Assembly: GCA_036172245.1 (NCBI GenBank)
Contig: JAYWIR010000128.1
Location: 1 to 64,000 of the forward strand
DNA: 64,000 bases
Direction: 5' to 3'
Source of the DNA: Raillietiella orientalis
Lineage: Eukaryota
Position numbers and translations under genes: made by a program. Below, in pieces: positions 291 through 60,334 of this stretch; the stretch's first letter is position 1; the number at the start of each line of letters is the position of its first letter. A model generated the notes under the pieces. It ran no database searches. It was not told where the DNA came from and saw only the letters and a program-made list of their open reading frames with translations.

Positions 291-492
291 CTTCTTCCGA
301 AGGGCAACCGTGCTTTCGACGAGGAGAAACGCGCAGATTGGATTGGCCCTTCACGGCGGAAAAAGTATTTTCCGCCATAGCGGGCCTGAAGAGGCGTAAG
401 GCGCCTGGGGAGGATGGCCTGCCCGCGGAGTTCTTTCAGTGCTTTGTGGCGGAGCTCGTCCCCTTGGTGCTAAGCCTTTCCTCGCTGATGCG
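288..492 (+). mobile_element. LINE ORF2 fragment (A-like; linker/RT N-terminus)
   Basis: Translates to PFTAEKVFSAIAGLKRRKAPGEDGLPAEFFQ (L1/Tx1 KAPGxDG motif). Cut at SLMR by a B element. Confidence 0.85.
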
Positions 493-909
493 TTTTGAAC
501 CCGGTCGCGCCGGGACGTTTATTTGTAAAAACGAACCACAAACTTCAAGGCAAATTCATCCTTACGAGACACAAGAAACGCCCATACAGTAAGTTCAGTT
601 CACAAAGATCAACGCAGGGTGCCTTCCAAAAGAAACGAAGGAAGGGAGAGGGATGCAGAATAAACAAAATATAAGGGTACAAACAAAAAAAACCAGTGGA
701 GAGTGGGGTCAGGTATCTTTGGTAGTAAACGTTTCTAATCTTTCTGGAAGCGCTGTTTGACAATGGCGACTTCCCTGGAGACTTTTCTGGGCAGATGAGG
801 CCACCTGACAGCTGCTTTCATAAAGTTCGCAGCGATTCTGGCGGCGTTCGTTCGCTGCGAGCTTCCTTCTTGTTTACGGCGGGCGATCACGATGGCGCGG
901 ATGCAAGAG
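493..909 (-). mobile_element. LINE subfamily B, 5'-truncated 3' end
   Basis: Homologous to 10016-10459. AATAAA (518-523) and CCCGG/CCGGG hairpin (500-514). Confidence 0.8.
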
Positions 910-923
910 GTTACTTTATCCAG

Positions 924-3816
924 AGGAAATGCTCGGCACCAGCCGACGTGCGACGGATAGTCAGGCGCTATTACTCTTCTCTGTATGCAGAGGCACCGAC
1001 GGAACGCAGCCTCTCCCAGCTGCTTCTGCCGATTGATACACCTGTTGTAGACGAGGACGAACGCGCGCGTCTTGATGAGCCCTTCACGGCAGAGGAAATT
1101 TCCTTTGCCATCTCGGGGCTCAAGAGACGAAAAGCGCCAGGCAAAGATGGGCTCTTCGCTGTATTCTCAGAGTGTTTTTCGGCGGAGCTCATCCCCCTGG
1201 TGCTTCAACTCTCGTTGCTGATGCGAGACTCGGGCGATGTGCCCGCCTCGTTTCGCTCAGCGAAGGTGCGACTGCTGCCGGAAGGCGGAGACTTGCGCCA
1301 ACTGAACAACTGGCGTCCGATCACATTAGTGCATTCGAACGTCAAGTTGTTCTCGAAATTTTGGGTAACGCGGATGGGTAGGATTGCGGAATCCTTGGTA
1401 AGTCCGGAGCAGACATAAGCTGTTCCTGGGCGGTCCATGGACGCGAATCTCTTGTTCATCCGCACATGGCTGCTATTGCAGCATCGTGTGGCGGTGGATC
1501 GTCGTGCGGAAGCGCCACCTGCGATCTCTTACCGACGGAGGCGCGAGACGCAAAGAGAGACACCGGGAGCCTTGGTGGTTGCAGTCGATCAGCACAAAGC
1601 TTTCGATTGCGTGAACCAAAAGCTTCTTCTTCAGCTTTTGGAACGTCTGCGTCTTCTGGCATCCCTGTTGGCGTACTTGCGCTCCTGCAGGCGCCACGCG
1701 ATTACATCCATTGTTTTCAGTGCCTGTCGCGTGTACGGCGTGCCGGTACGATCAGGAATTACGCAGGGTGACAGCTTAAGCCCACTGCTCTTCAGCATTT
1801 ATTTTGAATTGGTGCTGGAGGCTTACAGGCTGACGCTAGCCAACCTGCCGAGCTCCTGTCCAGGAACGTTGGCCGTGCCAGCCTATGCCGACGACCTGCT
1901 TCTCCTGTTGCCCATGTCCACCCCGGCGACATCGCTTGAAGATTTCTTTGAGTTCATCCGTCGCGGTGCGGGCGTGAGCGTCAACAGGAGCAAGTGCATG
2001 TTTTTTTTGTGGGAGCGACGTGGGAGGCGCAGTCCGACTGGATCGACCTGGGGATCCCCACGAGCAGGTACCTCAGGTACCTTGGCGTGCCGTTGGGCGA
2101 CTTCTGCATCTCAGAAGCGTAGTCGGACTGCCTTCGGAAGGCAGAGCCTGCACTTGGCCCGTTTTCAGGAGGCGAGTTCGTCTTGCCGGAACGGGCCAGC
2201 ATCTGGAACATATTTGTTGCCCCCCTTCGCCGCCTCCTGTTTTTGTTTGTCCACCCCCCAGGAAGTTAAAGTCTGGGCGCAGCGCCTTCTACGGAAAGCG
2301 TTGTGGAACGCTGCAAGATCCCGTGTTAGACTTCAAGACTTTGTGGCGCCGCGTCAGGATGCAGGATTGGGCATCCTCGACTTAAACAGCATCGAACTGC
2401 AGGTGCAGTTTCGCATGCTGCGGCTCTGTGCCAAGCTGTGGTGTACGCCGTGGTGCTTACCCGCACGCCTTATACTGAGGCGCTCCACGGGAAGCGAGGG
2501 ACGGCTTTTGTTGCTACCCCACTGTCGGAACACCAGAATAGGGTTTGGCTTCCCGCTGAGGCAGCTGTCCTCACTGCTGGAAGCCCAAATCTGGATCTCC
2601 TACCGCACCATGAACATTAATGCATGGCATCAGGAATCTTTTCCATCGTGGTCAGCTTCCGAAGGAACGCGTTCGGAAGATCTTCGACGCCTGCGACTTC
2701 TCCGCAGTCATCAAATGGACGAAGTCATGCAGGACAACAAGTTGTCGGATCGTCTGGCCGCCACACCACTCGCCGCAGCGCTGTCTGCCCTCAGGGCAAG
2801 CAACGACGGTTGCCTACCGGCGGAATGGGAGTTCTCCTGCAAAATAGCGGGAGTCAGTAAGCTCCTCGTCAGCTAGACGACAAAGGAGCTGGTGCAAGCC
2901 GTCACACCTCGGAATCGGGCGAAGGGCCTGTTTCGGTGGAGCGAACATTTAAGTGTGCCCTCCGGAGAGATAGTGGTTCCGTTCGTTTGTTTGGACCGCT
3001 CGATGTTCCCCCTTAAGTAGAAACAAGATGTGCTGCTCTTTTTACATTGTGCATTACACTGTAATAGACAGCGAAGCATCATTTTCGGGGGAGCTGCTTT
3101 GCCAAACTGTTTAAGGTGCGGAGAGAACGAGGCTTTTCCGCAACTTTTGCTGGACTGCGGTGACCTCCGGGAACTGTGGCGAAGGATCACTTCGGCCATC
3201 ATGCCACAAGGAGGCATTACCATTGACGTGCTGCAGCGCTTCTTCATCAGAAATGGACTTTCGGTTGGCGGGATTGTCGCAACCATGTGTTGCGTTCGCG
3301 CCATCGTGAAGGCCCGATACGCCCTGGAGTTGTCAGCGTAGCGAAGGGAGGCTCACCTGCTTGTAGCTCAATTCATGGAGAAGGCTTCAAGGTGGTCTCA
3401 TCTTCGTGACAAGGTGAATGAAGACATCACCGGCATACATCCCCGGTTTACACACCTTTGAGAACGGCGTAATCTGGTGACCGATGCGACCTCTCGCCCA
3501 CCCATACCCCGTCCCCGTTCGCTCGGTGAAATTTTCGGTGCCCATGCTTTTATCCCCGTGTCTTCCAGAGCGATCCCAAAGACCCTTATCCCCTCCTCCT
3601 TATTCATTGTTTTCATTTTATTTTGGTTTCTTTGTGTTCCCCGCCCCCCCCACACCGTTCAGAACACAGTTACTCAGGCCTGCGTGACAGCAATATTCTC
3701 TTCATTCTTGCTCAGTCGTCGGTTGGGAGTTTGGTTCCCAACTGGTTTATTTTGTATAATTGCTATTTTTGGTTATGCTATATGGAATAAACGCCCCGGC
3801 GTGACCAGGTGAGAAA
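924..3816 (+). mobile_element. LINE subfamily F, 5'-truncated, decayed ORF2 (RT + zinc finger) and 3' UTR
   Basis: Motifs KAPGKDG, NWRPITL, DQHKAFD, GITQGDSLSPLLF, AYADDL and CLRCGE. Stops and frameshifts present. AATAAA 3786-3791 plus degenerate terminal hairpin. Confidence 0.9.
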
Positions 3817-6130
3817 TCTCCGTTGCTTGTTCTGCAGAGATCACATGGATCTTCTGGAGCAGCACTAGGTCCAACGATCCTAGAATGGCGGCCATGTCTC
3901 GTCTCCTGCCGGCGTCTGTCATGCCGTTCACGTTCCAAACGGCGATGCGCAGACGACGGCGGGAGGAGATTCCCGCAATTACTGCCGGGAAGATGACGGT
4001 GTGGGGGTACCCTCCTCTTCCGAGGCGGGTGAGATGACCATTAGGGTTTCAGCCTCCTCAGGCACCTTGGGTACCTTTCCGGCTTAAACCCCCTCCATCT
4101 CCTCAGTGTCTGTGCATGGTGGTCTCTCGGGTGACGATTCCCGGGATTCTCCCACGCTCATGGCACCCTCGCAGTCGGAAGTCATCTCCACGTATTCGAC
4201 CTGGAGAGGGGCTTTCCGGGGTTTTCTGGACTTCCTTCCAGCCTTCCGGCGGGGTGCCGCGGAGATGGAAACTTGGTTTTCGGCCTGCCTTTCGGGGATG
4301 GAAGTTACCGACTCCTCGGTGGAGGCCGGACGCCTCGGTGCCTTTTTGCCAGCCTTGGAGGGGTCTGGCTGCAACGATGCAGCCAGCTCCTAGGCCGCAC
4401 ACTCGAAGGCGGCGTCATCGATCACGGTCTCGATGACGGACGCTTCCGCCGGTTCGCTCCCCACGCTGTTGACATTTTCAACAGTGGGTTGCTCGTCGGT
4501 AGCAGCGATTTCTACCTTGCGGCGTGCGGCGGGGACGCTTTCTACGACGATGCTGCATTCTTTTAAATTCTCGCTAATATGCTGTTCTTTATTTTGGTAG
4601 GCGAGCTTTTTTTCAATTCGTCGTTCTTTCTTCGACTTTTTTTTCTTTTTCGTTGTGAATTCTTGCCATTCCGACACCTGACCGCTTTTGTCGATCTTTT
4701 CGGCATTCGTTGCCGGGGTGTCGGCTGAGGCCTGGACCACGGGAGTGGGTGGCACAGCTGGAGCGGCAGCCTTCGCCGCCAGTTTTTTCTGTAGCATTCG
4801 CGCGGTGGTATAGTCCTCGAAAGGACTAGGCTTGGTCCATACTGCATGCACCGTGCCTTCTTTTCCCAACGAGGCGCGTAACTGTTCTTTCCGCATCGGA
4901 GCGGTAACTTATAAAAGGTGGACCACCATACTGTGGTCCGCCGTAACGGGAAGGAACCTTAGTGTCCCCATTACCACGGGGGTTTTAAGCAGACGTTGTG
5001 CCAGATCTGCATGTTTGCAGATCACCTCTACGTACTGCCCCCTGCTACGAATGGTCACAGCGCACAGCTCCTCCACTTTAACATCGAGAGCGCGCATCCC
5101 CTTCGAAAAGGCGCGCGTACTCTCAGAAGAATACAAATTTCCTACCTTGTAGAATAATGACGGTTTATACCCCTCTTGCACATAGGCAGATAATTCCGCC
5201 GCGGCTGCAGGCGATGGCGCCGACACGACGGCGCTATACGCCCGCGCTTCAGCGGGGACCGGTTTTGTGGGGGCGGACGCCGCCACCTTTTTCGCCACTG
5301 AAGGCGACGTTGCCGCCGCCCCCTGGCACTCCACCTTCTCTAGAGGCGACGTTGCCGCCGCCACCTGGCACTCCATTTCTTCAGGAGGCGACGTTGCCGC
5401 CGTCTCCTGGCACTCCGTCTTCTCTTGAGGCGACGTTACCGCCGCCACCTGGCACTCCATTTCTTCAGGAGGCGACGTTGCCACCGCCCCCTGACACGCA
5501 CTGGTGGTCGTGTCAGGCAGTGCTGCCTGATCGACCACCAGAACTTTTCTGCTAAGCGGCTTACCAAATTTCCTAGGTGGATTGACACTCGCCTGTCGAG
5601 CCGCCACCGACGCATAGGAAAAGGGCTGCGCCGCGGCAGCCGAACAAGATGGCGTCTCGCCCTGAACCGCGTGGACGCCCGCGGGTCCTGCCTGGGACGC
5701 CGCCGCTCCGAGCGCAACTTTCGACGTCGCCACCGTTTTCGCCGCGGGCGGCACCCTCGGCATCGCCTCCGCAGGCGCGACGTTCCCCTCCGTGGGCACG
5801 ATCCTCGGCGTCGCCTCCGTGGGCACGATCTCCGCAGTCGTCGCCGCGGGCACGACCCTTTGCCTCGCCGCCGCCGGCGCAGCAAAGCCCGCCGCGGGAG
5901 CGATCCTCGGCATGCCTGCCACCGACTCGCCGTTGCCGCACGTTACCTCCATGGCTTCCATGGGGGACGACGGTCTCTCCACTCCTCTTCTAGGTGCCTG
6001 CACCCTGGCAGGTGGTCTTGCTGCACGGGACCACTGCAGGTCTTTTGGCGCGATCTCCTCGCCGCTTCTTTTGTAGTTTCGTCTGAAAAACTTCCCATCT
6101 CCGGGCACACACGAGCACAATTAGCTGATT
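3817..6130 (-). mobile_element. LINE subfamily D 5' half (ORF1 + start of endonuclease) with an H-type 5' region
   Basis: EN motif AVWNVNG at ~3920-3945. ORF1 core (YKVG, IRSRGQYVEVICK, VVHL) is homologous to 23521-24714 and 54302-55457. 5545-6045 matches the reverse complement of 14760-15240. Confidence 0.85.
5303..5494. repeat. 42-bp in-frame tandem repeat (~4.5 copies; 14-aa AAATSPPEEMECQx) in ORF1
   Basis: GGCGACGTT recurs at 5303, 5345, 5387, 5429 and 5471. Confidence 0.9.
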
Positions 6131-6134
6131 ACGT

Positions 6135-7894
6135 TGTCGAGCGCACAATACTTTGAGCCGCGAAGCAAGTTCACCGACTCGGCAGTAGAAGAGCAGTATC
6201 CCGACTGTCAAGAAGGTGACTCCATTGACGCCTCTTAAAGGCGTAGCGGAAGCAACGCTTGCAGAGAACGCAGCGAAAATTCCGGAGGTTTCCGCAACTA
6301 CTGTCGCGGAAGCCTTCGAAAATCGCGAAGGCAAATGGAAGGATGTGGAGTGGAGGAAAGAAAAATCTACAAAAAAAGCTCCGCAACATCCATCCCTGAG
6401 CTCTTCCAAAGGAAAAAGCAGTCGCGGGAATGCGAAAACACGCGCAGCTTGTGCCACTTCCAAGCAAAAAGCCAGCGGCTTCAACGCGTGCCAGTCCGCT
6501 TCTGTGACAGCCGAGAAGACCATTCCGGTGCACTCGGACGCCTGCAAGCGCACGTCGATCGTGCGATCATCAGACACCGCAAAGGAGTCCTATAGCGCCG
6601 CGACGCGTAACTCGCGCGGGAGCGAGCGCCCGCAGTGCTGAAGCCCTGAGGCGTGACACACTCGCCGTGGAACGGCGAGTGCTCACCGCGGAACCCACAG
6701 GTTCTGCACCCGGGGTGGAGCACATGATTACGTGCAGCACAGTTGAGGCCAGTGGCGACTGCGCCCTCCAGCCCGTCGTGCTTCTTACCGCCCGCTCGCC
6801 GGGTGAGGCGAGCACCACGGCCTCGCTTTCCCAGCCGTGATGAGGGCAATCGCGTCTTCTCGTCGTGTTGTTGTAACGTCTTGGAACGACAACGGGCTCC
6901 AACACGAGGAGAAAAGGCGACTAGTGGCTGACGCTCTGCGCGCCTCCGACTTGACGCTCCTGCAGGAGATTCACAGCATCTCCGGAGAGCAGGCTGCCGA
7001 AATCGAAAGTTGCGCGGGCGGAACGCTACTTTATAGGTGCGGCGTTGCACGTACGTGCGGCGTCGCTTTCCTCGTGCGAGGAACTTTGGCGGGAGCGGTG
7101 CGCAGCGTTCGTTTCGACACGGAAGGCCGAGTGGGACAGCTTGTACTCAAGTGGTCCGTCTCGATCGACCTTGTCGTTAACAACGTGTACGCGCCGAGCT
7201 GTGCTGGACAATGGGCTGGAAGGATTGAGTTTTTCGGTACACTTCAAAGCCAGTGGCTCCCTCGATCTCACCCTACTCGGCCCATCTCATTGCGAGGGAC
7301 TTTAACGTCCACCTGCTTTCCGAGAATAGATCCCACAAAAGGGAAAAGTTGCTAGCGGAAGAGATGTGCGCGTCCGTGCACGCGTGCAACTTGTTCGCTA
7401 GCGACCCTGTTATGGCAGCAACGCCGAAACACGTATACCTTGATGAACACTTGCTCTGTCGAGTGGGTCGGAGAGGTCCCGTGCCGTTTGTGCTTTCAGA
7501 TTACAACAGGCTCGAGTTCGAGTTGCTCCCGCCAGGCAAGAGGCCTCCAAACTGTTTTTGGAGGATGCCAGCAGACTGCCTAAGCCACCCGGAGGCGGCT
7601 GAGCATCTTCGCCAGTACCTCCTCGGCTTAGCCATAAGTTAGCTCGAGCACTGGGACGAACTGAAATGATCGGTCCGCGAGTTATGCTGCCGGTTTCCCT
7701 TGAACCAGCTTCCGCGCGGCTCCGAAGAGAACGTAGCCAACAGCAGAAATTTTCTGCAGGCATGCTCTCTTTCCAGGCGCGCTGACGTTGGTCGATTATC
7801 CGAGTACAAGCCAAAGGCCGAGCGCCAGGTCTGGCAGTCAGGGGCGACAGTTCTGCTCGACGACCAGGACCGAGAATGCTCAATCTAGCCGACG
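6135..7894 (+). mobile_element. LINE A-like element, part 1: ORF1 C-terminus + APE endonuclease + linker (decayed)
   Basis: Motifs VTSWNDNG, LLQEIH, TCGVAFLV, NVYAP, RDFN, LSDY and FWRMP. Left boundary approximate. Confidence 0.85.
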
Positions 7895-9782
7895 TTTCTC
7901 ACCCGGATATGCCGGGGCATTTATTATACTAATTTTCTACAAAAATTAGATAATAAAGTCTTTAAAAAAAGATGTTTTCTGTGGGGAAACACTGGGTAAA
8001 CCACCTTGCTGGACGTGTCGGTTGCCGGTGCATAGACCGGTTAGGTCCATTCTTGAGGCGCATGGGAAGAAAAAACTAGAACAAAAACAAACAACAAGAG
8101 AGATAACGGGGAAAGAAACAGTTGTATGCGGAGAGGGAGGGGGCAGGGAAGGGATTACTGGGCGCCTGGGTCGGTCCTCCGCATCCTGTTAAGGATGCAG
8201 TCAAGTTCTGCTTTAACTGAGAGAGCTGGACGCCACCTTGTCGCCGTCTCTAAAGAGAACGTCGTCCAGTGGATAACGTCCCTGCATCTTGGTCCTCTTC
8301 TTCTGGCGTGCCACCTTTGCACAATGCCGCGCACGCAGCAGAGGACTGCTAGAGACGCAGCGGGGCGCAGGCCGTCAGCAGAAAGAGGCGACGGTAAATT
8401 TCCTTAGTGTCGCCTACTGGAAGATGAAGGATTGGGGCGATTCTACTCCAGAGTCCATCCAGGGCGACACACTCGAGGGTGAGATGCGGGAAGGTTTCTC
8501 TTTTTCCGCAGTCGACACAGCGGGCTTCCACTTTCCCCAGTGTCCAGTGAGACAGGCGTGCTCTGCTTAACAGTCCCCAGTGCAGAAATAGCAACGCCGT
8601 CTCCTGCCACTTCAACGGAAGTATGCCGCAATCCCAACACGCTGGGGGCCACTTCACCTCCTTCGGAGGTATTGCGAGCAGCTCTCCCCAGCGCGCAAGT
8701 CCGTGAGGCAGGACGCTCGGGGTGGCAGCGTCCGTGAGCTCCCGAGTCGTCCACGCCTTTAAAGGTTTTTTCCTGCCTCGGATGAGGCAGGAGACTTCCC
8801 ACGATGCCAGCTCGTTGCTGCTCCTACTGTTTTTCAGGGAGGACAGAACGGGGGCAAGGGGACTGAAAGAAGCCCACAGAAACTTCCGGGGCGTGTTAAT
8901 AATCTCCTGCAGCGGCTGTCGAGCGTACGGTCCTCGTCGTAGGAAGTTGTATTCCGCGTCGCTCGTGCCGTCGATCTTAGCCCACGCGGAAGCTGACTCC
9001 TGAAGCCAGGCAGTCCAGTTCGCGGAGAGGCAGGAGATCCAGGTATTCTCCCTCATCAGGGTGACCATCTGGCGCAAATTAAGGCCACAGTTGGAGAGGC
9101 TGCGCTGGTAGGCCACGAGGATCGAGGACAATCCTTCGCAGCCGGTCGCTCTTCTGGCGAGGAGCCGTGCAGGATCGCACCATGGCGTCATCCATAAGCT
9201 AGCCGCAAGGGCTAACTTCCGAAGTGTTGTCTGTATTTGGATGCGCTCCAACGTAAGGAGGCCCAAGCCACCATCCCTGCGTGGAGCGCACAAGTCTTTC
9301 AATCGGACTCGCGACCTCGCTCTGCCCCAAAGGGCAGTCCTCAAGATGGCTTTGGTCCGTCTCTGTATGATATGAGGGGCGGTGCAAACAAAAAGTAATG
9401 GGCGTAGGAGGGGGGCCGCGAACGCGTTTACACCACGGCCCGCTCCTGCAAGTAAAACTTGCCGTTCCGGAACGGGCCGATCGCCAACTCCACCTTTTGG
9501 AGATGGTCGGACCAGGCTTCTGCAACGCAGAAGTCCCCCAACGGAACGCCAAGGTACTTGAAGCACCTGCCCGTGGGGATCCCCAAGCGGATCCAGTCCG
9601 GCCGTCCGGCCCACGCCGTATTGTTGAAAGCAGTGAAGATGTAGGAACGATGGAAGATTTCTCTTTGTTCACCTCGAGGCTTGTCCCGCGGCGCAGCAAC
9701 TCAAAGAAATCTTCGAGCGCCGACGCCAAGGTGGACCCGGGGAGCAGGAGCACAAGGTCGTTGGAGTAGGCCGACACGGCAG
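7895..9782 (-). mobile_element. LINE subfamily C, 5'-truncated (RT C-terminus, zinc finger, 3' UTR)
   Basis: SAYSNDL (degenerate YADD), GGLGL, and CVDCGKRETFPHLTLEC in ORF 8349-9614. AATAAA 7920-7925 and hairpin 7902-7916. Confidence 0.9.
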
Positions 9783-10015
9783 CTTACGGAACGAAGTCTC
9801 TCCAAGCTGCTTCTTCCGACGGGTAGCACTGCTTTCGACGAGGAGGAACGCGCCAGATGGAATTGGCACCTTAAGCGCGGAAGAAGTATCTTCCGCCATA
9901 GCGGGCTTAAAGTGGCGTAAGGCGCCTGGCGAGGATAGCCTGCCCGCGGAGTTCTTTCAGTGCTTCGCAACGGAGCTATTCCCCCGGGTGCTGAGCCTTT
10001 CCGCGCTGATGCGGT
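9782..10015 (+). mobile_element. LINE A-like element, part 2 (linker/RT N-terminus)
   Basis: TERSLSKLLLP through SALMR. Continues at 21701 after the 12-bp TSD CGCTGATGCGGT. Confidence 0.8.
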
Positions 10016-44138: not shown

Positions 44139-44153
44139 GCATAAGGCGTTCGA

Positions 44154-48601: not shown

Positions 48602-50548
48602 ATGTCCACGGAGGCATTGCAGCAAAAGATAGATGTGAACGCTGCCACTGGCAGTAGAGACTCTACTCCAGATGTCCGGTCCGCCTCTGATTCTTGTGTC
48701 TCGTCACCGGCGAGAAGCTTCGCCGCCGTCGTCAAGGCGGCGGCAGCCAACGGAGCACCGCCCGACGAACCAGAGCTGCAGGCATATGCTGCCCATGGCT
48801 ACAAGCTTGCGCTCTGCTATCAGGTGAGTGCTTCTATCTCCGACGGGGTCGGAGAAAATTTGTGGGACGAGCTTTTGCGCGTCGCGGTCCGACAGGACGA
48901 CCTCCTGGCCGTCATGCCGTTTAACGCGCTCGGACACTGGGAGGTGCACTGCAAAGAAACATCCCTAGTCCAGCGCCTTCTCCGCACCCCGCTAAATATC
49001 CGCGGGAATGAGGTCGTCCCGTCGGCCATGGACCAGTCGTTCGTGGTCCGATTATACGCCGTCCAGGTGGACACGCCCGATCGCGTGCTCGTCGCTGCAC
49101 TAAGTGCATTCGCCACGGTGCACGCGCTGTGGAGAGCAGAAAATCCGATCAAAAGGATTGCATCTCTCCACAGCGAACTTGCCATGGCGCGTGTCACCAT
49201 GGCGAATAGGAGGCAAATGCCTCCGCACTTGCAGGTGGGCTATGCGATCGTCCACCTTGAATTTGCCGGTCAGCGACCGGCTTGCAGCATTTGCGGTACA
49301 GAGGGCCACCGTCCGTAGACGTGTCCTTCACGCAACTGCCGCTATTGTAAACAGCTCGGCCACTCCATCAAAGAGTGCGCCGAGCAGAAGAGAAAGCGGC
49401 AGGCGAAAAGCCGCCAACAATCGAACTTGTCCGCGCCAAAAAGATCCCCCGTTGTGCCACGGGAGAAATCGGGCGCGAAGGGAAGGGCATCTTCGAGTGG
49501 AGGTTCCGCGAAAAAGGACGCGGTTGCTTCAGGGAAGCCACCATCCTAGACAAACGCGCAGACGGGAAAGATGCCACGTCGCCCTGTGGGCAAATCGCCC
49601 CCTTCGAAGCAGCCTAAGAGTGCGGGCACGCACTCAATCAAGGCTGCTGAACCGTCCGCGTCCGCTAGCGCGTCCAGCGGAGCACACGGGAAACCGTGCG
49701 CGGGTACCGCCGGAGCTGCCTCTGAACGGCAGTCTCCTCCTACGGCGGTGGAGATCACGTCTTCCACGCCGAAGGCACTAGCAGCGAAGGCTGCAATAGC
49801 GCCTCGCGGGACGACGGCAATGACCGCCTTTTCGCCCGCATCGGCTAAGGAGCAGGTGCAGTGCGTAAGGGGGACGGAGCCGTCTCCCGTCGCGAGCGCG
49901 AAACGTGAGCCGGCATCTCCGGCCAAACAATTGAGGGAGGCGTCGGCCTCCCAGGAGGGCGTCCCCGACGCGGGCTGGACTCGAGTCTCCAGGACGCTCA
50001 CAAAGGGGAAGAAGAAGGTTGACCATTCAATATTCCCCATCCTTAAGGTAGGTGGGAGGCAAAAGAGAAGCACGCCGAAGAAGGTGCGTACCTGGGTACG
50101 CACCTTCTTCGGCTGCGTTCTCTGTCTCCGTCCCTTCGCGCGAGAGATCGGCTGCGGAAGCAAAGCTCCGGAAGCTGCGTTGGCGACTGCGACGACCCCC
50201 GCGCGGGCAGGGCAAGCCTCCACCTGCCGAAACAAAAAGAGACTGGCAAAACGCCAGTCTCGCGCCAGGCACTCCGACTCCGAGGTGGAGTCCGAGTGCA
50301 AACAAATGGAGCGCGCATCCCGGGGTAAGCCGGAAGCGCGCCGGGCTAAAGTGCGGAAGCACGAGCCTGTTGCCGGAGGCGGTTCCGGCTTTTGCACGGA
50401 GACCGAGGCGATGATCCTCGGCTCCCAGGACTCAGCTGGGCGCGATGTGGCGGCGAACGGGAGCAATTTCGCTTCCCAATCCGCTCTCCTACCAGCTGAC
50501 TTGTCGCCCCACGGGGCGAGGAGCACGCCGTCATGTCCGCAGCAGTGA
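48602..50548 (+). pseudogene. ORF1 of A element (RRM-like core, two CCHC knuckles, low-complexity C-terminus), two in-frame stops
   Basis: ORFs 48569-49318 and 49571-50548 share a frame. Knuckles CSICGTEGHRP*TC and CRYCKQLGHSIKEC. Stops at 49316 and 49547. Confidence 0.85.
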
Positions 50549-53500
50549 TGCGTGGACTCGCGTCCGCTCGTCGTGTCAGCGTGGCCTGTTGGAATGTCAA
50601 CGGGCTACGTGATGCTGACAAAAGGCGGACGGTAGCCAACGCTTTGCGCGCGTTCGATCTGGTGCTGCTGGAGGAGATACATAGCATCTCCGTACGGCAG
50701 GCATCGGATCTGGAAGAGCGCGCGGGCGGGACGCTACACTGGCGGCAAGGCTACGCTCACACGTGCGGAGTCGCGTTCCTCGTCCGAGGCAGGGTGGCGG
50801 AGGCGGTGCGGAACGTTTGTTTCGAGGAGGAAGGTCGTGTGGGCCAACTTGTCCTCAAGTGGTCCGAATCGATAGAACTGGTCGTTACGAACATCGACGC
50901 GCCGAGCGGCGGCCGGCATTACGCCTAGCGACTTTCATTCCTGGGTGGCCTGCGCAGCCGCTGGCTCGCTGACTCCGGCCCTAACGTGGCGCGCTGCCTT
51001 GCAGGAGACTTCAACGTCTACACGCTAACAGAGGAGAGATGCCGCTTGAGGGAGAAGCAACTGGTGATCGAGGTATGCGCGTCCGTGCGCGTGCATAACT
51101 TGCTTGCTGTTGAGCCCGGGATGGGGAGATCGCCGGACCATGCGTTCCTCGATGAACACCTGCTCTCACGAGTAGGTCTTACAGGGCGCCTGCTGTCCGC
51201 TATTTCGGAACATCCTGGACTGGAGTTCGAGCTCCTCCCGCCTGGCGAAGGGCCTCCGATGAATGTCTGGAGGTTGCCGGCCGACTGGCTTAGCAATTCG
51301 GAAGCGGCGGAGCATCTCCGCCAACACCTCCGGGGCTTCGCCATCTGTGAACTCGAGGACTGGGACGATCTGAAAAGATCGGTCCGCGAGTTCTGCTGCC
51401 GGTTTCCCTTGCACCTGCTTCCCCGCGGCTTCGGGGAGGGTGTCGCGAACAGCAGATCCTATTTGCAGGCGCGTACCATTTCCCGATGCGCGGACGTCCG
51501 GCGTCTGGCGGAGTATAAGGCGAGGGCCGAGCGCCAGGTTTGGCAGTCTGGAGGGGCTTGTCTGCTCGATGACGCTAGCCAGGAATGCTCGACTGCAGCC
51601 AAAGTACACCGCGTAGTCAAGCGCTACTACTCCTCGTTGTACGCGGCGGAGCCCACGGAACGCAGTCTCTCCGAGCTGCTTCTTCCGACGGGTAACCCTG
51701 CTATCGACGAGGAGGAACGCGCCAGATTGGTTTGGCCCTTCACGGCGGAAGAAGTATCTTCCTCCATAGCGGGCCTGAAGAGGCGTAAGGCGCTGGGGAA
51801 GGATGGCCTGCAAGCGGAATTCTTTCAGTGCTTCGCGGCAGAGCTCGTACCCCTGATGCTAAGCCTTTCCTCGCTGATGCGTGAGACGGGAGATGTTCCC
51901 GCTTCTTTCCGCTCAGCAAAGGTGCGGCTCCTGCCAAAAGGCCGTGATTTGCGCCACCTCAGCAACTGGAGTCCGATCACATTGGTGAATTCGGACGTCA
52001 AGTTGTTCTCCAGGCTAGGGGTCGCGCGGTCGTCCTTGGTAAGTCCGGAGCAGACGTATGCTGTTCCGGGGCGGTCCATGGACGCGAATCTCTTCTTCGC
52101 GCAAACATGGTTCGAGTTGCAGCAGCGCGTGGCGCAGCAGAGCCAGGCAGCCGAATTCGCCGCTGCTAAAGAAAAGCGGCGGTGTTCAAGGCACGATGGA
52201 ACGCCGGGAGCCTTAGCGGTCGCAGTCGATCTCTGCAAAACGTTCGACAGCGTAAACCAGGACCTCCTTCTGGAGCTTCTGGGACGCCTAGGGCTCCGGA
52301 CGCACCTCATCGCCTACTTGCGCTCCTGCTGGCGCCACGCGTTATTCTGTATCTCTTTTAGCGGGCGTTACGTTTACGGTGTTCCTATACAGCGGGGTAT
52401 CTGGCAGGGAGACAGCTTAATCCCCCTGCTATTCAGCATCTTCTTTGAGTTGGTGCTGAGGGCGTACAGGCTGACGCTGGCCAACCTGCCGAGCTCCTGC
52501 CCGGGAACACCGGCCGCGGCCGCCTATGCTGACGACCTTCTCCTGCTGCTGCCCATGTCCACCCCGGCGTCCAGGCTCGAGGACTTCTTCGAGATCATTC
52601 GTCGGGGAGCGGGCCTGGGCGTGAACAGGACGAAATCAACCGTTGTACTGGTTGGCTCTACGTGGGAGAGGCAGTCCGACTGGATCCGCCTGGGGATCCC
52701 CACGGGCAGGTGCTTGAAGTACCTCGGCGTTCCCTTGGGCGCATTTTGACCAGCAGAAGCGTTATCGGACTGCCTTCACAAGGCCGAGGATGCTCTGGGC
52801 TTGTTCCAAGGCGGCAGGTTTCTCCTGTCGGAACGGGCCTTCGTGTGGACCATTTTCGTTGCCCCCCTCCTCCGTCCCCTCTATTTTGTTTGTCCCCCTC
52901 CCTACTCGGCTAAGCGCCGGGCGCAACGCCTGTTGGGTAACGCTCTGTGGGGACCGGCGAGGTCCAGGATACGCCTGAAGGACTTGGCGGCTCCTCGGGG
53001 CGATGCAGGATTGGGCATCCTGACGCTGGAGCGGATCGGACTCCTAGTGCAGTTCCGCATGCTGGCACTTTGTGCGCAGCTCTGGACTACTCCCTGGTGT
53101 GCTCCAGCGCGGCTGCTGCTGCGGCGCAGCACGGGTGGCGACGGACTACGTTCGTTGTATCTGCGCACGGAGCGCGCCCAGAGAGGATTCGGGTTCCCTT
53201 TGAATCAGCTCTCCTCGCTTCTGGGGAAGCATTCGTGGATCTCCTGCCGGCCGACGAATTTCAACGTCTGGATTCAGTAAGCCTTATCGTCCTGGGCAGC
53301 GCAACAGGATGTGTCCCGTTTGGAACTCCGTTGCGTGAAACTTTCCCCATACTGTCCAGTGGGGGAGGTGCTGGAAGACCAGGACCAGTGGAAACGCCTA
53401 GCCGCTACGCCACTCGCCGAAGCACTGTGTGCACTGATGGTGCGAAATGACAGTGACCTGCTGGCGAGGTGGGAGATCACTTGCGAAATCGCAGGCGAAA

Positions 53501-54096
53501 CCCGACTGCTGGGCGGCTGGCGGACTTGCGAAATGGCAGACGCTGCCACACCTCGCATTCTCGCAAAAGGGCTTCTCCGGCGAAGTGAGCTCCTCGGGGT
53601 GCCCCCTGATGAACTTGTGGTTCCTTCTGCGTGTTTGGACGCGACTCTCTTCCCCCTTCGGTGGAAGCAGGACGCTTTTCTGCTGGTGCATTGGGGTTTG
53701 TACTGCATCCAGGAGGCGCACCTGATTTCCGGGGGAGTGGCGTCCCCGAACTGTGACAAATGCGGAGCGGTGGCATCGCTTCCGCATCTGCTGTTTGAGT
53801 GCGGTGCCCTCCAGGAGCTGTGGCGGCGGCTGTGTTCTGCGCTCCTGCACCCTGGACACACCGCACTGGATTGGATGCGCCGCTTCTACACGCGTGGCGG
53901 ACCTTCTCTTGGAGCGGTCGTCGCAATCATCTGCTGCGTCCGCGCCATTATCAGGGCCCGCCACGTATTGCAGATGCGAGCGTTCCCAACATCGGTCCCC
54001 GACACCGCAGCCTGCAACCTGCAAATGGCTGCCGGCTGGCCACATCTTGGAGCAGAAGTGATGACGGAGATCGGCGGCATTCACCGCCGGTTCTGA
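50548..54096 (+). pseudogene. ORF2 of A element (APE endonuclease, reverse transcriptase, zinc finger); one frame of ~1180 codons with three nonsense mutations
   Basis: ORFs starting 50533, 50986, 52801 and 53311 share a frame. Motifs WNVNG, GDFN, DLCKTFD, QGDSLIPLLF, AYADDL, KYLGV and CDKCG...HLLFEC. Confidence 0.92.
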
Positions 54097-54301
54097 GAAT
54101 AGGAACGGTCAGACTGTATACCCCTGTCCTCGCCCTTCCACCCAGTTTATTTATTTATTGTCCCACTTCCTCCCGTTCCGAACTCTCAGTGTGCCCGGAC
54201 TGCGCTCCGGGAAATCTACTCCCCATTTTCTGTTTCCGTTGCCTGGGAACACAGTTCTGAGTTGATATTTTTATAAACGTCCCGCCGCAACCGGGTAATA
54301 A

Positions 54302-55457
54302 ATGATAACGCTGAATTCTTTAATTTCCTCGGTTTCCTGCTCTTTTTTCTGGAGGTACGCGAGCTTTTTCTCCATCCTCCTCTCTTTCTTTAATTTTTTG
54401 GCCGTAGCCACCTGCCACCCAGTCTCTTGGCTAGTTCCATCGACTTGTTCGGCGTTGTTCGCCGGGGACTCGGGTGCGGATTGGGCTTTGGGCGCGGGTG
54501 GCACAGCCTCCGCGGCACCTTTCGCCACCAGCCTTTTCTGCAGAATGCGGGCACGTTTTTTAAGGTTTCTCTTTAAAACCACCCGCACTGCTGCTTTAGG
54601 GCACACCTCAATCGTGTGTGTATCATGGTGCCGTATACTTGGCACTGCACATTGGGACACCTCTTTTTGAGGTGGCCCGACGTATTGCAGAAGCCACAGT
54701 ATTTCGGTTTTCCCACTTACCAGAGGTCGACGGTTTCGCCTTCGACCATCAGTTTGTGGAGTAGAGTGCAGCCCTCCCGAACGGTCAGGCGCGCGGCCGT
54801 GAGGCCGCGTTGCATCCCCGTGTAGTCCTCGAAAGGACTCACTTTCGTCCACTGCGCGTGGACCGTTCCGTATTCCTCCAACGCGGCGCGAACCTGTTAC
54901 TTGCGCATCCGCGCAGTAACACCTACCAGGTAATCCACCATGCTACGGTCCTCCGTAATAGGGAGGAGCAATTGCGTACCCATCATTACGGGGGTTTTAT
55001 GCAGTCGTTGTGCCAGCTCTGCGTGTTTGCAGATCAACTCTACGTACTGGCTTCCGCTACGAATGGTCATAGCGCTGAGCTCCTCCTCTTTCACATCGAG
55101 AGCGCGCATGCCCTTCGAGAAGGCGCGCGCGCTCTATAAAGAATATAAATTGCCTACCTTGTAGCACAATGAGGGGTTGTACCCGTCCTCTACATTGGCC
55201 GACAATTCCGCCGCGGCTGCAGGCGATGGCGCCGACACAACGACGCCCCACGCCCGCGCCTCAGCGGGGACCGATTCTGTGGGGGCGGATGCCCCCACCT
55301 CCATCGCCTCTGGCGACGACGTTGCCGCCGCCCCCTGGCCATCCCTGGTGGTCGCGTCAGGCATCGCTGCCTGATCGAGCACCGAACCACACGACGCTAG
55401 CACTAAAGGAAACTTCCTGGCACAAGGAGCACCGAGAAAACACGTCCACCCTGGAGC
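54302..55457 (-). mobile_element. LINE subfamily D, 5' part (5' end + ORF1)
   Basis: ORF1 homologous to 23521-24714. GGACGTGTTTT at 55437-55447. Followed by the KAFD-site TSD. Confidence 0.85.
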
Positions 55458-57614
55458 ACGCAAGGCGGTCGACTGCGTAGACCAGGATCTCCTCCTGGAG
55501 CTCCTGGGTCGCATGGGCTTCCCACCCTCCCTACTCTCCTACCTGCGCTCCTGCTGGCGCTACGCTATCGTTAATATCCGATTCTCATATCAACAGGTGT
55601 ACGGCGTGCCGGTGCGGCGGGGCATCCGGCAGGGTGACAGCCCCAGCCCCCTGCTCTTCAGCATCTACTTTGAGTTGGTGCTGAGAGCATACAGGGAGAC
55701 TTTGGCAACCCTGCCGAGCTCGTGTCCCGGCACGCCTGCCGTGTCGGCCTATGCCGACGTTCTTCTGCTTCTGCTTCCCGGGTCCACCCCGGCATCGGCG
55801 CTCGAGGATTTCTTCGAGTTGCTATACCGTCGGACAGGCCTCCAGGTAAACAGGACGAAATCGTCGACGCTTCTCAGCGACTCGACGAGGGCCCGACGGT
55901 CGGACTGGATCCGCTTGGGGATCCTCACGGGCAGGTACATCAAGTACCTTGGCGTTCCGTTGGGGGACTTGTGCCCTGCAGAAGCCTGGTCCAACCGTCT
56001 ACAAAAGGTGGAGCTGGCGATCGGCCCGTTCCGGGACGGCAAGTTTCACTTGCAGGAACGGGCCACGGTATGGAACGCGTTTGCGGCCCCCCTCCTCCGC
56101 CTTCTACTTTTTGTGTGCCCTACACCTTACCAAATCAGGACACGGACTAGGGGCCTTATACGGAAAGCCCTCTGGGGCAACCGGAGGCCTCGCGTCCGGC
56201 TCAAAGACTTGTGCGCTCCACGCAGCGACGGTGGACTTGGTCTCCTGACGTTGAAGCGCATGGAGCGACAGCTCCAATTCAGAAAACTTGCCCTTGTGGC
56301 AAAGTTTTGGACAGCACCCTGGTGTGCACCGCAAAGACTCCTTGCTCACAGGGCAACCGGCTGCTTCGAATTGACTTCCATCCTGGTAGCCAACGAACGC
56401 AGCCTAAACCATTGTGGTTATCAGCTGCGGGATTTGGTTGCCCTTCTGAGAGACAACCCTTGGATCTCCTGCATCCCAGCGGACTGGACTACCTGGCTTT
56501 AGGAGACCGTTTCCGCATGGGCGAAGATCTATGACACCAGCGATGAGGACTTCTCCTGCCTCCGCAGAAGGAGGCACGCTGGTCAGCCACTCCAGGAGAT
56601 CGTTTCCAACCCACGGAAACTTCTGTGGGCTTCCTTCACCCCCCTTGCCCCAGTACTGCCCTCCCTAATGAAAGTTCGGGACAGCCAACAGGAGGCATCG
56701 TGGGAAGTGTCCTGCCTCATTGGAGGCAGGAAAAAATCACTGAAGGCGTGGACGCCGAGGGAACTAGCAGACGCTAGTACTCCGAGTGTCCCGCCGAACG
56801 GAATTTTACGCTGTGGCGCCCTGCTCGGTATACCTCCGGAGTAGGTGAAGTGGCCCCCAGCGTCTTGGGACAAGGGTACCCTTCCCCTGCAGTGGCAGGA
56901 GACGGCGTTGCTTCTGCTCCACTGGGGACTTTTAAGCAGAGCACGCCTGTCTCGCTGGACAACGGGGAATGTGGATGCTAGTTGTGCAGAGTGCGGGAAA
57001 AGGGAGACCTTCCCTCACTTGATTCTATAGTGTGTTGCCGTCCGCAAATTGTGGGACAGACTCTCTTCGATCCTCAACATTCCGGAGGGTGACCCGAAAA
57101 ATTTAGTCAGACGCCTCCTGACGCGAGACGGCTTGCCAGCCTCCGGGAGCGTAGCAGTGCTCTGCTGCATACGCGGTATCCTGGAGAAGTGGACCGCGTC
57201 TAGAAGAGGAAGGACCAGCCGGAATGCCATCCACTGGGCAGCGATCTCCTTGGAGAAAGCGTGCCGTTGGCGCCGACTTCAAAAACATTTGCCGGCACTT
57301 GTTCGCATCCGAAACCGGATGCAAAGGCCTGCTCACGGCGCACCGCGATCCCCTCCTCCCCTCCCCCTCCCCGAAAAACATTGCCCTCCAGACGTTTTTC
57401 TTTTTTTTGGTGTTTGTTTTCTTTTATTTTTCCCGTCCTGGCGCCAGTGAAGGACCTTTTCGGCCTCCGGGTCGGTAAGGACAAGTGCTACTGAACTTCT
57501 GAACTGGACTTGTGACGTCGTAAAAAGGAAAATTTTAACAACATAGAGTTTATTACAAAATTTTGTAATGTCAAAATTTTAGTAATAAAAGCCCCGGCTT
57601 ACCCGGGTGAAAAA
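55458..57614 (+). mobile_element. LINE subfamily E, 3' half starting at the RT KAFD motif
   Basis: RKAVDCVDQ, GIRQGD, AYADV, KYLGV and CAECGKRETFPHL. AATAAA 57584-57589 and hairpin 57593-57607. Confidence 0.9.
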
Positions 57615-58497
57615 CCTGGAGGAGGGATACGACCCTCCCTCTTATATAAGGTAGGCGGATTGTGTTCTGCCGAGAACGCGCGCGCCTTTTCGCAGGCGAT
57701 GCGAGTTTACGGAATTAAAAAAGAGGAGCTTCTGGCTATCTCCATAAGAAGCGGAGGACAATTCGTCGAAGTTATCTGCAAGGAGGCAACTCTTGCGCAG
57801 AGACTTCTCCGAACCCCGTAAGAATGGGCAGCCGAAGGCTTCTTCCAATAACGGAAGACCGGTCGGTGATTATTCACCTGACCGGCATCACGTACCGTAT
57901 GAGCAAGGAGGCCGTCCGGAACGAAATTGAAAAAGTGGGGACCGTGCACGCGCTTAGGGGTAAGCTCACCACGTTCGTGGACTACGACGGGTTGCTTGGG
58001 GGACTGGGCGCAGCGCGAGTCACACCACGCGAGGGATGTGAGTTTCCCCACAAACTCACCGTCAACGGTGAAACCGTCGACGTGAGGTATGTGGGGAAAC
58101 CCAAGTTCTGCGGCTGCTGCACCAGCTGTTGACACCTCAAAATTAGGTGCTTGAGCGTGCAGTGCCAGTAGTGCAAGCAAGAGGGGCACACCCGTCTCGT
58201 GTGCTTCCAAAATTCAGTCTGTGTCGCGTCCGCAAAAAACGCGAGAAAGCGTGCGGCTAAGAAACGAAAGAAGCTGGCAGCTCGTGCTGCAGCTTGGGAG
58301 GTCACCTCCGTCACTAAAACGAAGGCTAGTTCCGAGACCACGGCGAAAATCGCAGGAAAGGTTGAGGGCGACAGACAAGTGCCTGGTTAGCAGGAGGTCA
58401 ACTCCAAAAATAAAACTGCCACGAAGGCACGGAAAAGCGCGAAGCGGAGCGAAAATGCACCGCGCTGCGTAAATACTAAAAGTTACTGCGTCGTCGT
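57614..58497 (+). mobile_element. Divergent LINE ORF1 fragment (D-related)
   Basis: EEGYDPSLLYKVG, LLPITEDRSVIIHL, YVGKPKFCGCC and CQ.CKQEGHTRLVC. Ends at YCVVV. Confidence 0.8.
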
Positions 58498-60334
58498 TTG
58501 TTACCCAGTTGTGCCAAGAAGTTTATTACTAAAGGAATCTGGGAACTGGGTTCCCAGGCAGGGGGAACATAAGATTGGAAGAATGGTTCCCGGCAGAAGG
58601 CCGGGGACAATCAGAGTTCGGAACGGGAGGAGGGGGAGGGACAATAAATAAATAAATAGTTTGGAAGGGTGGGGATAAGGGTATGCAGTCCCGCCGTTCC
58701 TTTTCTTAAACCCGGCGGTGAATGCCCGAAATCTCCGTTTTGACTTCTGTTCCGAGGAGCGGCCGCCCGGCAGCCATTTGCAGGTTGCAGGCTGCAGTGT
58801 CGAGGACCGAGGCTGGGAACGCTTTCATCAGCAATAAGTGGCGGGCCCTGACAATAGAGAGGACGCAGCAGATGATTGCCACGACCGCTCCAAGAGAAAG
58901 ACCGCCACGCGTGAAAAAGCGGCGCATCCCGCCGCTTCTTCATCCAATCCATTGCGGTGTGTCCGGGGTGCAGGAGTGCTGAAGGCAGCCGCCGCCACAT
59001 TCCGTGGATGGCAATGCATTCAAACAGCAAATGCGGAAGCGATTCCACTGCTCCGCAATTTGCACAGTGCGGGGACGCAACTCCCCCGGAAACCAGTTGC
59101 GCGCGCTGGTTACAGAACAAACCTCAATGAACCAGCAGAAAAGCGTCCTGTTTCATACCGAAGATGAAACACAGTTGCGTCCAAGCACGCAGAAGGGACC
59201 ACAAGTTCTTTGATGGGCATTCCCAGGAGCTCGCTCCATCGGAGAAGTCCCTTCGCACGAAGGCGAGCCTTGGCAGCGTCTGTCAGCTCGCAAGTCCTCC
59301 AGCCACTCAGCAGTCGGGATGCAATTGCGATTTCGCAAGCGACCTTCCACCTCGCCGGTAGGTCACTGTCGTCTCGCACCATCGGTGCAGACAGTGATTC
59401 GGCGAGGGGCGTAGCAAGTAGGCGTGTCCACTGGTCCTGGTCTTTCAGCACCTCCTTCACTGGACAGTATGGGGAAATGTTTGCGCAACGAAGTTGCAAA
59501 CGGGACACATCGATTTGCGCTGCCCAGGACGTTAAGGCTTTCTGCCTCCAGGCGTTGAAGTTCGTCGGCCGGCATGATATTCACGAATGCTTCCCTAGAA
59601 GCGAGGAGAGCTGCTTCAGGGGGAAGCCGAATCCTCTCTGGACGCGCTCCCTGCGCAGGTGCAAGGAACGTAGTCGGTCGCCACCCGTGCAGCGGCGCAG
59701 CAGCAACCGCGCTGGGGCACACCAGGTAGTAGTTGATAGCTGGCCCCCAAGGGCCAGCATGCGAAACTGCACTTGCAGTCCAATCCGCTCCAGTGTCAGG
59801 ATCCCCAATCCTGCATCCCGCCGAGGAGCCGTCAAGTCCTTGAGACGAATTCAGGATCACGCCGGTCCCCACAAGGCGTTTCGCAACAGGCGTTGCGCCC
59901 GGCGCTTAGACGAGTAGGGAGGGGGACAAACAAAAAAAAGGGGACGGAGGAGGAGGGCAACGAAAATGTTCCACACGAAGGTCCATTACCACAGGTGGAA
60001 TTTGCCGCTTCGAAACGGGCCCAGAGCAGTCTGGGCCTTGTGAAGGCAGTCCGACCACGCCTCTGCTGAACTGTAAGCGCCCAAGTTCGTGCGAAGAAGA
60101 GATTCGCGTCCATGGACCGCCCCGGAACAGCATACTTCTGCTCCGGACTTACCAAGGACTCTGCGATTCTCCCCAGGCGCGCGACCCATAGCCTGGAGAA
60201 CAACTTGACGTCCGAATTCACCAAGGTGATCGGACACCAGTTGTTAAGGTAGCGCAAATTTCCGCCTTTCGGCAATAGCCGCACCTTTGCTGAGTGGAAG
60301 GACGCGGGAACATCTCCCGTCTACCGCATCAGCG
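58498..60334 (-). mobile_element. LINE subfamily A, 3' half with the same RT deletion as 21701-23520
   Basis: Reverse-complement match to 21701-23520. AATAAA 58522-58527. Confidence 0.9.

Follow-up and report, generated by a model that had tools for sequence, protein, structure and literature searches.

Sequence-specific LINE-into-LINE insertion by several subfamilies in a 64-kb stretch of Raillietiella orientalis DNA

Introduction

Can subfamilies of long interspersed nuclear elements (LINEs) hold fixed insertion sites within the genes of other LINE subfamilies? The question is raised by a stretch of 64,000 nucleotides from Raillietiella orientalis (assembly GCA_036172245.1, contig JAYWIR010000128.1, positions 1 to 64,000; hereafter the window), whose content is limited to decayed LINEs of the apurinic/apyrimidinic endonuclease (APE) type, one 276-bp satellite and one U4 small nuclear RNA (snRNA). 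An earlier note on this DNA had claimed that element ends fall repeatedly at the same codons of related hosts, that the site follows the inserting subfamily, and that the insertions possibly close into a cycle. We find here that several subfamilies have inserted into other LINEs at specific sequences, and that the case is real and unusually clear. The window is probably to be understood as a nest of APE-type L1/Tx1-like LINEs, each subfamily sitting at its own site of ~10-15 bp in the coding sequence of other subfamilies. All site and identity results rest on this one 64-kb window.

LINE subfamilies and their common 3' end

At least eight LINE subfamilies, 45-78% alike, are present (A, B, F, A', C, D, E1, E2, X and H are the names used below). 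Identity matrices were obtained from five windows of one common alignment, and two groups were distinguished. To group I belong A (82-89% identity between copies), F, B and two host pieces designated A' (6796-7894 and 30181-30843). Group II comprises D (copies 77-91% alike), E1, E2, C2 (72-78% to E2) and also X. Identity between the groups is 44-70%, and H is alignable to the others at protein level only. The A' pieces show 70-75% identity to A#1, and F shows 71-72% to A. A model in which 6796-7894, 30181-30843 and 55459-57614 form one host element was dropped, because 30181-30843 belongs to group I (73-75% to A#1) and 55459-57614 to group II; the latter piece is 72-78% identical to C2 and, in the distal alignment window, 47% to A#1.

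All LINEs in the window finish in one type of 3' stem-loop with a short A-rich tail. A fuzzy scan recovered ten such 3' ends, which read AATAAAyG-CCCGG-loop-CCGGG-T and then continue with 5-6 A-rich bases, lacking poly(A). Four further ends were read directly (decayed D ends at 24731 and 44155, E1 at 29553, H at 20725). The 5-bp stem is kept across 12 aligned ends, with the commonest pair found in 7-10 of the 12 at each of the five pairs. Sequence after the tail differs by subfamily. All three A ends pass from AATAA into ACGACRACGC, both B ends from yCAAA(A)C into CGCATCAGCG, both C ends from GrsAAA (GAGAAA or GGCAAA) into CGwCGG, and all three D ends from GAAAA into TCGAACGCC. The remaining ends read GAGAAA then TCTCCGTTGC for F, GAAAAA then CCTGGAGG for E2, GGAAA then TTACATTG for E1 and GAGAAA then CGGTTTTC for H. 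A pattern scan of metagenomes for the 3' stem-loop returned 120 loci, none of them (0/120) similar to the window by blastn or tblastn, so that these are chance matches to a pattern that is too loose, probably unrelated hairpins.

Full-length 5' ends also share a feature. GACGTG(T/C)TTT occurs ~10-17 nt from the terminus in A#1 (48516-48540, + strand), D#1 (24690-24714, - strand), D#3 (55434-55458, -) and B2 (21676-21700, -), and may be a common internal promoter or initiator element.

Element ends at recurrent codons

Ends at recurrent codons had been reported at 14 coordinates (483, 10004, 21701, 23521, 48508, 54302, 58490, 24715, 27455, 30830, 44139, 55459, 7890 and 30181), and all 14 prove to lie at or within ~14 nt of a break between homology blocks. 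Three of them mark the first base of the motif and not the break itself, namely 58490 (break at 58497/58498), 7890 (7894/7895) and 30830 (30843/30844). The elements are real insertions, with junctions that show the 3' stem-loop and its tail, and with target site duplications (TSDs) of 8 to ~15 bp; these measure 8 bp for A, 10-11 bp for B and D#2, and ~15 bp for D#3.

Could the junctions be artefacts instead, arising from repeat misassembly or from reverse transcriptase (RT) template-switch chimeras at conserved motifs? Highly repetitive regions are prone to misassembly, and two 5' junctions show microhomology. On the other hand, junction partners are mostly in opposite orientation, a complete 3' stem-loop and tail adjoins the site, and A#1, B2 and D#2 are surrounded by TSDs. 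A separate sequencing run holds 0.11 of the sampled window words; on 44001-64000, 641 of its short contigs were placed, 365 of them <90% alike, so the run comes from a relative. Its contigs carry these families, which speaks against an artefact but is no test of the junctions. We find an artefactual origin scarcely credible.

Insertions of D at RT motif A

The target of D is AAGGCGTTCGA, corresponding to the K-A-F-D codons of RT motif A, and it was found occupied in three hosts: an A relative (HostM, group I, 52-58% to D and 73-75% to A#1), E1 and E2 (63-71% to each other). Overall the D hosts are 52-71% alike, as compared with 80-83% for the D copies. Five coordinates had been assigned to D at KAFD by the earlier note. 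All of them are D junctions, but they represent a mixture of three 3' junctions (24730/1, 30843/4, 44154/5) and four 5' junctions (24714/5, 27454/5, 44138/9, 55458/9).

In the A' host, the KAFD codons are adjoined by D#a (30844-33336, -), a 3' part with 83.4% identity to D#3 that is cut off by the satellite. E1 (27455-29553, +), preserved from the KAFD codons to its 3' end, is host of D#1 and D#2. D#2 (24731-27454, -; 81.8% to D#3) is 5'-truncated at a position past which D#3 runs on, and its TSD AGGCkTTCGA is present as AGGCGTTCGA and AGGCTTTCGA. Of D#1, the 5' part remains (23521-24714, -), extending from the CVVV target ACGACAACGC (23521-23530) to the 5' end. E2 (55459-57614, +), a C-like group-II LINE likewise preserved from the KAFD codons to its 3' end and matching RVT_1, is host of D#3. 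The 3' part of D#3 (44155-48515, -) contains the 3' untranslated region (UTR), RT (RVT_1 at 45537-47210), endonuclease (EN) and 3' part of open reading frame 1 (ORF1), and runs to the left TSD copy ACGACAAC (48508-48515) of an inserted A element; the 5' part (54302-55458, -) starts at the right TSD copy ATGATAAC.

In two places D copies follow each other in tandem, separated solely by the identical 16-mer GCATAAGGCGTTCGAT (H-K-A-F-D, + strand). One remnant (24715-24730) lies between D#1 and D#2; the other (44139-44154) lies between D#a', a 5' end (43474-44138, -) with 87.7% identity to the D#1 5' end, and D#3. The arrangement of D, remnant and D is a tandem insertion into regenerated target: D stacks in tandem because duplication regenerates its site. 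At its 5' end D#1 resembles D#a' (87.7%) more than D#3 (82.6%), from which it follows that A#2 and A#1 reside in non-orthologous D copies of the two tandems. The right half of the window thus reads D#a, satellite, D#a' 5' end, remnant, D#3 (with A#1), E2, X, A#3 and an inverted duplicate.

Insertions of A at an ORF1 motif

A elements target ACGACRACGC, the C-V-V-V codons of ORF1, in three hosts that are 63-77% alike. The site comes after two CCHC knuckles and a Lys-rich stretch, as seen in the translations KECCVV, KEFSVI/VVV, KECSIVV and KSYCVV. The full-length copy A#1 (48516-54301, +) matches Exo_endo_phos and RVT_1, and its ORF2 is a single frame (50500-54093) with 3 stops. It is inserted in ORF1 of the antisense D#3, between ACGACAAC (48508) and ATGATAAC (54302), the two copies of its 8-bp TSD. 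In the paralogous D#0 (3817-6069, -), the 5' part of a D-type LINE with 76-80% identity to D#3 and D#1, the same site is empty and reads as an uninterrupted ACGACGATGC (4544-4553).

The second copy, A#2, abuts D#1. Its segment a (9774-10013, +) is joined to the interior of C2 and ends in CGCTGATGCG, the left TSD copy of the B insertion; its segments b and c (21701-23520, +; 80-87% to A#1) extend from the right TSD copy CGCTGATGCGG to the 3' end, where GGGTAATAA finishes at 23520. The third copy, A#3, is a 3' part (58498-59051, -; 81% to A#1 and to A#2). Its host X (57615-58497, +), the ORF1 region of a group-II LINE with 63-67% identity to D#3/D#1, shows two CCHC knuckles followed by YCVV and ends at the A target ACGACGACGC (58488-58497).

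Is the third insertion a copy of the second? The window contains an inverted duplicate of ~99% identity (59052-64000, -, versus 18052-22982) that covers A, the 5' part of B and the 3' part of H. It ends at 22982/59052, inside A, and beyond this point the identity profile falls to ~80% in A and ~60% in the flank. A#3 in X is thus a separate event, independent of A#2, and the junction at 58490 is ruled out as a copy of that at 23521. This pattern suggests that two A elements inserted independently have recently undergone gene conversion or recombination, and not that a segment was simply duplicated.

A#2 and the recent copy A#3 are without 645 bp of A#1 (52106-52751), the deletion lying at 21950-21967. 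The missing segment holds the KAFD codons targeted by D.

B, C and single-event insertions

B2 is inserted in A#2 at the S-L-M-R codons upstream of the RT LLPKG motif, between two CGCTGATGCG copies (10004 and 21701), and is itself split by H. Its 3' part (10014-14535, -) comprises 3' UTR, RT, EN (Exo_endo_phos at 13461-13895) and part of ORF1; its 5' part (20726-21700, -; ORF1 start and 5' end, 58% to A#1 48700-49385) adjoins the right TSD copy. Over 3.6 kb B2 is 65.9% identical to A#1. The B site was assigned to RT domain 0 and the C site (ADVR) to the EN-RT linker.

C2 sits at the ADV/R site with its 3' part (7895-9782, -; GAGAAA then CGTCGGC; 72-78% to E2; zf-RVT 25 bits). It adjoins GCCGACG at 7894, and the host resumes with the next codon at 30181, so that any duplication is at most 3-4 bp. 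The C2 5' part (29554-30180, -; 58% to D 5' regions in the same orientation), assigned by nest logic, is the target of E1, and its 5' end adjoins the continuation of the A' host. The earlier note had placed C at 7890 and 30181 in an A element; the junctions are real, but the host is A-related (70-75% to A#1) and not A itself.

A shorter array of the same order stands at the left edge. C1 (26-290, -), a 3' fragment with 87.1% identity to C2 (7891-8160), has the tail GGCAAA then CGACGG. A0 (288-492, +; 88.5% to A#1) is an A-type RT fragment ending at the SLMR site CGCTGATGCG (483-492), to which B1 (493-909, -), a 3' fragment with 83.7% identity to B2, adjoins with TCAAAA then CGCATCAGCG. The C1 3' end lies at ~26, with 25 nt of flank remaining in the window; this flank is ~70% like the ADVR host flank (17 of ~24 positions, two indels), with a proximal match of 9/13. 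Judging from their similarity, C1-A0-B1 may be an old duplicate of C2-A2a-B2 that subsequently suffered deletion, although the weak likeness of the C1 flank counts against this. The joins between C interior and A 5' breakpoint show microhomology, CACGG at 9774-9782 and CTG at 288-290. Such joins would fit either 5' end joining with concomitant loss of much of the target or a microhomology-mediated deletion at a later time.

Further insertions were met once each. F (915-3816, +), a 5'-truncated group-I LINE extending from RT (RVT_1) to its 3' end with 66-68% identity to A#1 and B2, ends in the endonuclease region of D#0. The E1 3' junction in C2 reads CCCGGATGGAAA then TTACATTG. H (14675-20725, +), a divergent LINE with ORF1 CCHC knuckle, APE and RT (RVT_1, 8e-27), is inserted in B2 ORF1 with the 3' junction GTGGTGAGAAA then CGGTTTTC. 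Inside B2 ORF1 the H 5' end is joined, with nothing in between, to a full-length U4 snRNA (14536-14674, +; Rfam RF00015, 95.4 bits, model positions 1-138 of 138), and the H ORF1 frame opens at 14669. L1-U6 chimeras exist, and U4-H has the look of a 5' chimera of snRNA and LINE or of a head derived from an snRNA.

H also shares a module of ~500 bp with D#0 (14735-15240, +, and 5540-6069, -, respectively; 82% identity). The module comprises the 5' end and ORF1 N-terminus, and the rest of both elements is unrelated at the DNA level, which points to a putative modular exchange of 5' ends between subfamilies.

A seven-level nest

Positions 6796-30846 can be read as a nest of seven levels, A' < C2 < E1 < D#1/D#2 < A#2 < B2 < U4-H, H being at the top. 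At its base lies the A' host, with a left part from EN to the ADV codons (6796-7894, +; 70% to A#1, 56% to D#3; ending in GCCGACG) and a middle part from the R of ADVR to KAFD (30181-30843, +; 73-75% to A#1, 52-58% to D) that continues the codons of 7894. A single deletion reaching from inside C2 to inside A#2 explains all missing pieces, since these form one uninterrupted run of the + strand.

The chain H>B>A>D>E>C>A that had been proposed is therefore readable as one seven-deep nest, but its steps are single events and not replicated edges, and its base is only A'. Closure into a cycle was not borne out. The base is A-related at 70-75% and so stands as far from A as F does (71-72%); since, moreover, the F target differs from that of A, and the base has lost its own 3' end and target, A>D>E1>C>A' amounts to no demonstrated cycle. 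Reciprocity does exist at group level: A and F (group I) are inserted into D (group II), and D and C (group II) into A' (group I).

Independence of events and chance

Both A and D reuse one site in different, diverged hosts; for B (483 versus 10004) and C (the end at ~25 versus 7890) recurrence is doubtful, as the second junctions may be old duplicates. The earlier note had itself cautioned that some junction pairs may descend from old duplications. This may apply to C1-A0-B1 and C2-A2a-B2, which are 84-87% identical, and probably applies to the two D tandems, which contain an identical 16-mer. It had also reasoned that congruent histories of inserters and hosts would betray one amplified insertion. 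When the histories were compared, the opposite was found, with incongruence for both A and D.

In principle the same picture could result, with no need for target specificity, if a few ancestral insertions had been multiplied within a repeat-rich, perhaps centromeric region through segmental duplication, unequal exchange or gene conversion. Segmental copying has taken place here (18052-22982 and 64000-59052, ~99% identical and inverted), C1-A0-B1 resembles C2-A2a-B2 at 84-87% in every part, and both D-remnant-D junctions contain the same 16-mer. However, D junctions occur in three hosts of different groups that are 52-71% alike while D copies are 80-83% alike. The A 3' parts are equidistant (81.5, 81.3 and 81.0%) while their host flanks are 76.9, 67.1 and 63.3% alike; the A site of D#0 is empty; and D#2 is 5'-truncated with a TSD of its own. 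Given TSDs, the empty A site, differing 5' truncation and mismatched inserter and host divergences, simple segmental duplication is excluded for A and D, and we consider copying as the general explanation very unlikely.

Chance coincidence was also evaluated. For three events to coincide to within 3 nt in a 5.5-kb host, all with one relative orientation, uniform simulation gives a probability of 5e-7; for two such coincident events an analytic estimate gives 6e-4. Occupancy of the motifs in the 64 kb is high. Both exact copies of the A 10-mer are at junctions. Both exact copies of the D 11-mer are flanked by D, and two of three one-mismatch copies are occupied. The B 10-mer is at junctions in four of five exact copies, one of the four (60325-60334) lying inside the inverted duplicate; the fifth, in A#1, is empty.

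An alternative is that the elements are site-specific for short motifs anywhere in the genome, LINE hosts being incidental and sister LINEs serving as no havens. Apart from the satellite, the window contains hardly anything but LINE sequence, which means that whatever inserts here inserts into a LINE, and the 25-nt flank of C1 matches the ADVR flank in the proximal 13 nt only (9/13), as a short-motif rule predicts. Against this, the A and D targets are homologous codons of homologous genes in hosts otherwise 52-77% alike, the motifs are rare (two exact copies each, all occupied), and sequences of this kind are supplied most abundantly by the conserved coding motifs of a multicopy family. We regard this alternative as unlikely.

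Several observations weigh against a nest of site-specific sister LINEs. Perfect or near-perfect sites remain unused, namely the B site at 51872 in A#1, the C 9-mer at 941 in F and AAGGCTTTCGA at 18204 in H. To account for the nest, no fewer than three additional deletions or rearrangements are required (9782/9774, 909/915 and the satellite). B and C have one secure event each, and E1, E2, F and H one event each. The parts of C1-A0-B1 (26-909) match those of C2-A2a-B2 at 87.1, 84.6 and 83.7%, and the A breakpoints almost coincide. Because they share an identical remnant and show 82-88% identity, the two D-remnant-D arrangements probably trace back to a single ancestral tandem, or to a read-through dimer that was retrotransposed. 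E2 is oriented as X is, in contrast to the other pairs. Finally, covariation in the stem-loop is nearly nil; as only one of the five pairs is doubly changed, its support is one of conservation, not covariation.

The targets may be compared with the corresponding sites of the inserters themselves. The own K/E-A-F-D codons of D differ from the target at third positions only (AAA or GAA, GCA versus AAG, GCG), and the own SLMR site of B is one base off its target. In this small sample, the differences hint at self-avoidance by D and B.

Proposed mechanism

Nesting of sister LINEs at subfamily-specific sites could be explained as follows. Each subfamily would integrate by target-primed reverse transcription at its own site, its endonuclease presumably nicking the bottom strand at the left-hand border of the segment that becomes duplicated and its RT recognizing its own 3' stem-loop, as in a 'stringent' LINE. 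Repeated rounds would lead to deep nests such as A' < C < E1 < D < A < B < H. Nesting would come with large deletions at microhomology-bearing 5' junctions, and each insertion would inactivate the host copy.

More tentatively, the LINE lineages might parasitize one another. Endonucleases would have evolved for constrained motifs of rivals, with the own copy kept out of reach and with reciprocity between groups, so that a self-contained network might renew a LINE-only domain, perhaps a centromere, beside the satellite. We consider this extended view possible, though doubtful. If sister LINEs do serve as specific targets, endonuclease specificity would be open to retargeting many times within one young radiation, and the subfamilies would offer a natural set of APE domains, each specific for a different 10-15 bp sequence, which could interest those who work on programmable insertion. 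Mutual knock-out may then be a form of competition among retrotransposons, and sequence-directed nesting, not chromatin targeting, might be how LINE-only domains such as Zepp-type centromeres come about.

Relation to known systems

Havens of target-specific LINEs include rRNA and snRNA genes, microsatellites, telomeres, DNA transposons and long terminal repeat (LTR) elements. R1 and R2 target 28S rDNA, and TRAS and SART target telomeric repeats. With R1, R2, TRAS and SART the elements described here share a sequence-specific APE (R1, TRAS) or other endonuclease, a multicopy haven and target regeneration that allows repeat occupancy; those systems, in contrast, target host genes or repeats and not other retrotransposons. 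Tx1 ORF1 has CCHC knuckles, and such knuckles are also seen here in ORF1 of H, D#1 and X. Sequence specificity of the R1 endonuclease has been described (PMC1919474).

Most target-specific families fall into early-branched, Tx1 and R1 groups (PMC4640811). Tx1 is found in the piggyBac element Tx1D and Tx1-Mar in Mariner-N4_AMi; Tx1-8_Crp and Tx1-4_AMi each occupy groups of LTR retrotransposons, and Tx1-9_AMi lies in the 5' region of Harbinger elements, ~300 bp from the end. SINEU elements mobilized by Tx1 carry 5' additions of U1 and U2 (PMC4494074), with which the U4 head of H may be compared. The likeness to the Tx1 clade lies in APE-type LINEs with one site inside another transposable element family and with different targets in sister families. 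It is a behavioural likeness, judged by features. Unlike Tx1, which targets DNA transposons, LTR elements, snRNA genes and microsatellites, the subfamilies described here target coding motifs of sister LINEs, including the RT catalytic motif, and several of them insert into one another within one nest.

Nested GC-rich LINE clusters formed by Zepp and ZeppL are candidate centromeres (PMC3446292), and satellites can flank Zepp-type clusters (PMC9940879). Zepp (Chlorella, Coccomyxa) and ZeppL (Chlamydomonas) are L1-type LINEs, and nested insertion into LINE copies is common to them and the window. Zepp is nevertheless described as one family inserting into itself with arrays of 3' ends, whereas at least eight subfamilies with fixed sites for each are found here, most insertions run antisense to their host, and none ends in poly(A); the distinction is drawn from the description of Zepp. 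A single self-targeting family with 3'-end arrays does not fit the window, in which insertion into the own kind occurs only as D-D tandems at a host site and A#1 and D#3 are full length. Searches of full-text literature, with subscription papers and the original Zepp paper outside the scope, turned up no account of sister LINE subfamilies inserting into each other's coding motifs.

Content of the window

Outside the satellite, GC content is 53-61%, and mutually similar fragments with 56-99% identity occupy both strands. Among 112 stop-to-stop frames of at least 140 aa, Pfam domains were detected as follows: RVT_1 in nine, Exo_endo_phos in three, zf-RVT in two and zf-CCHC in one. Exo_endo_phos at 50500-50925 scores 29.3 bits (cut-off 24.5), with weaker matches at 13461-13895 and 16565-17431, and APE-like endonuclease and RT are found together in a single ORF2. 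The zf-CCHC match in H ORF1 scores 21.6 bits (cut-off 20.8); zf-RVT, with 25.0 bits, is under its cut-off of 27.5, and zinc features are not exclusive to Tx1.

The closest solved RT structure is human L1 ORF2p (E 1e-29). A search of 1.8 billion representative proteins returned two metagenome fragments with 62-63% identity, the rest being at most 34-38% identical; the best named matches are unannotated turtle and pseudoscorpion proteins (33-34%). Further protein searches gave matches of 22-27% identity and generic RT clusters. No tRNA was found in a search of the window, and the U4 snRNA is its single Rfam match.

ORF1 of D#0 contains a 42-bp (14-codon) tandem repeat in 4.7 copies (5302-5497), which the other D copies lack. 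CpG loss was ruled out as the driver of decay, CpG observed/expected being 0.97-1.04 in LINE parts. The satellite (33341-43468) consists of 36.8 copies of the 276-bp unit with 76% matches and ~39% GC. It lies between the truncated copies D#a (ending at 33336) and D#a' (starting at 43474), where the nest is discontinuous, and its CpG observed/expected is 0.77 as against ~1.0 in the LINEs.

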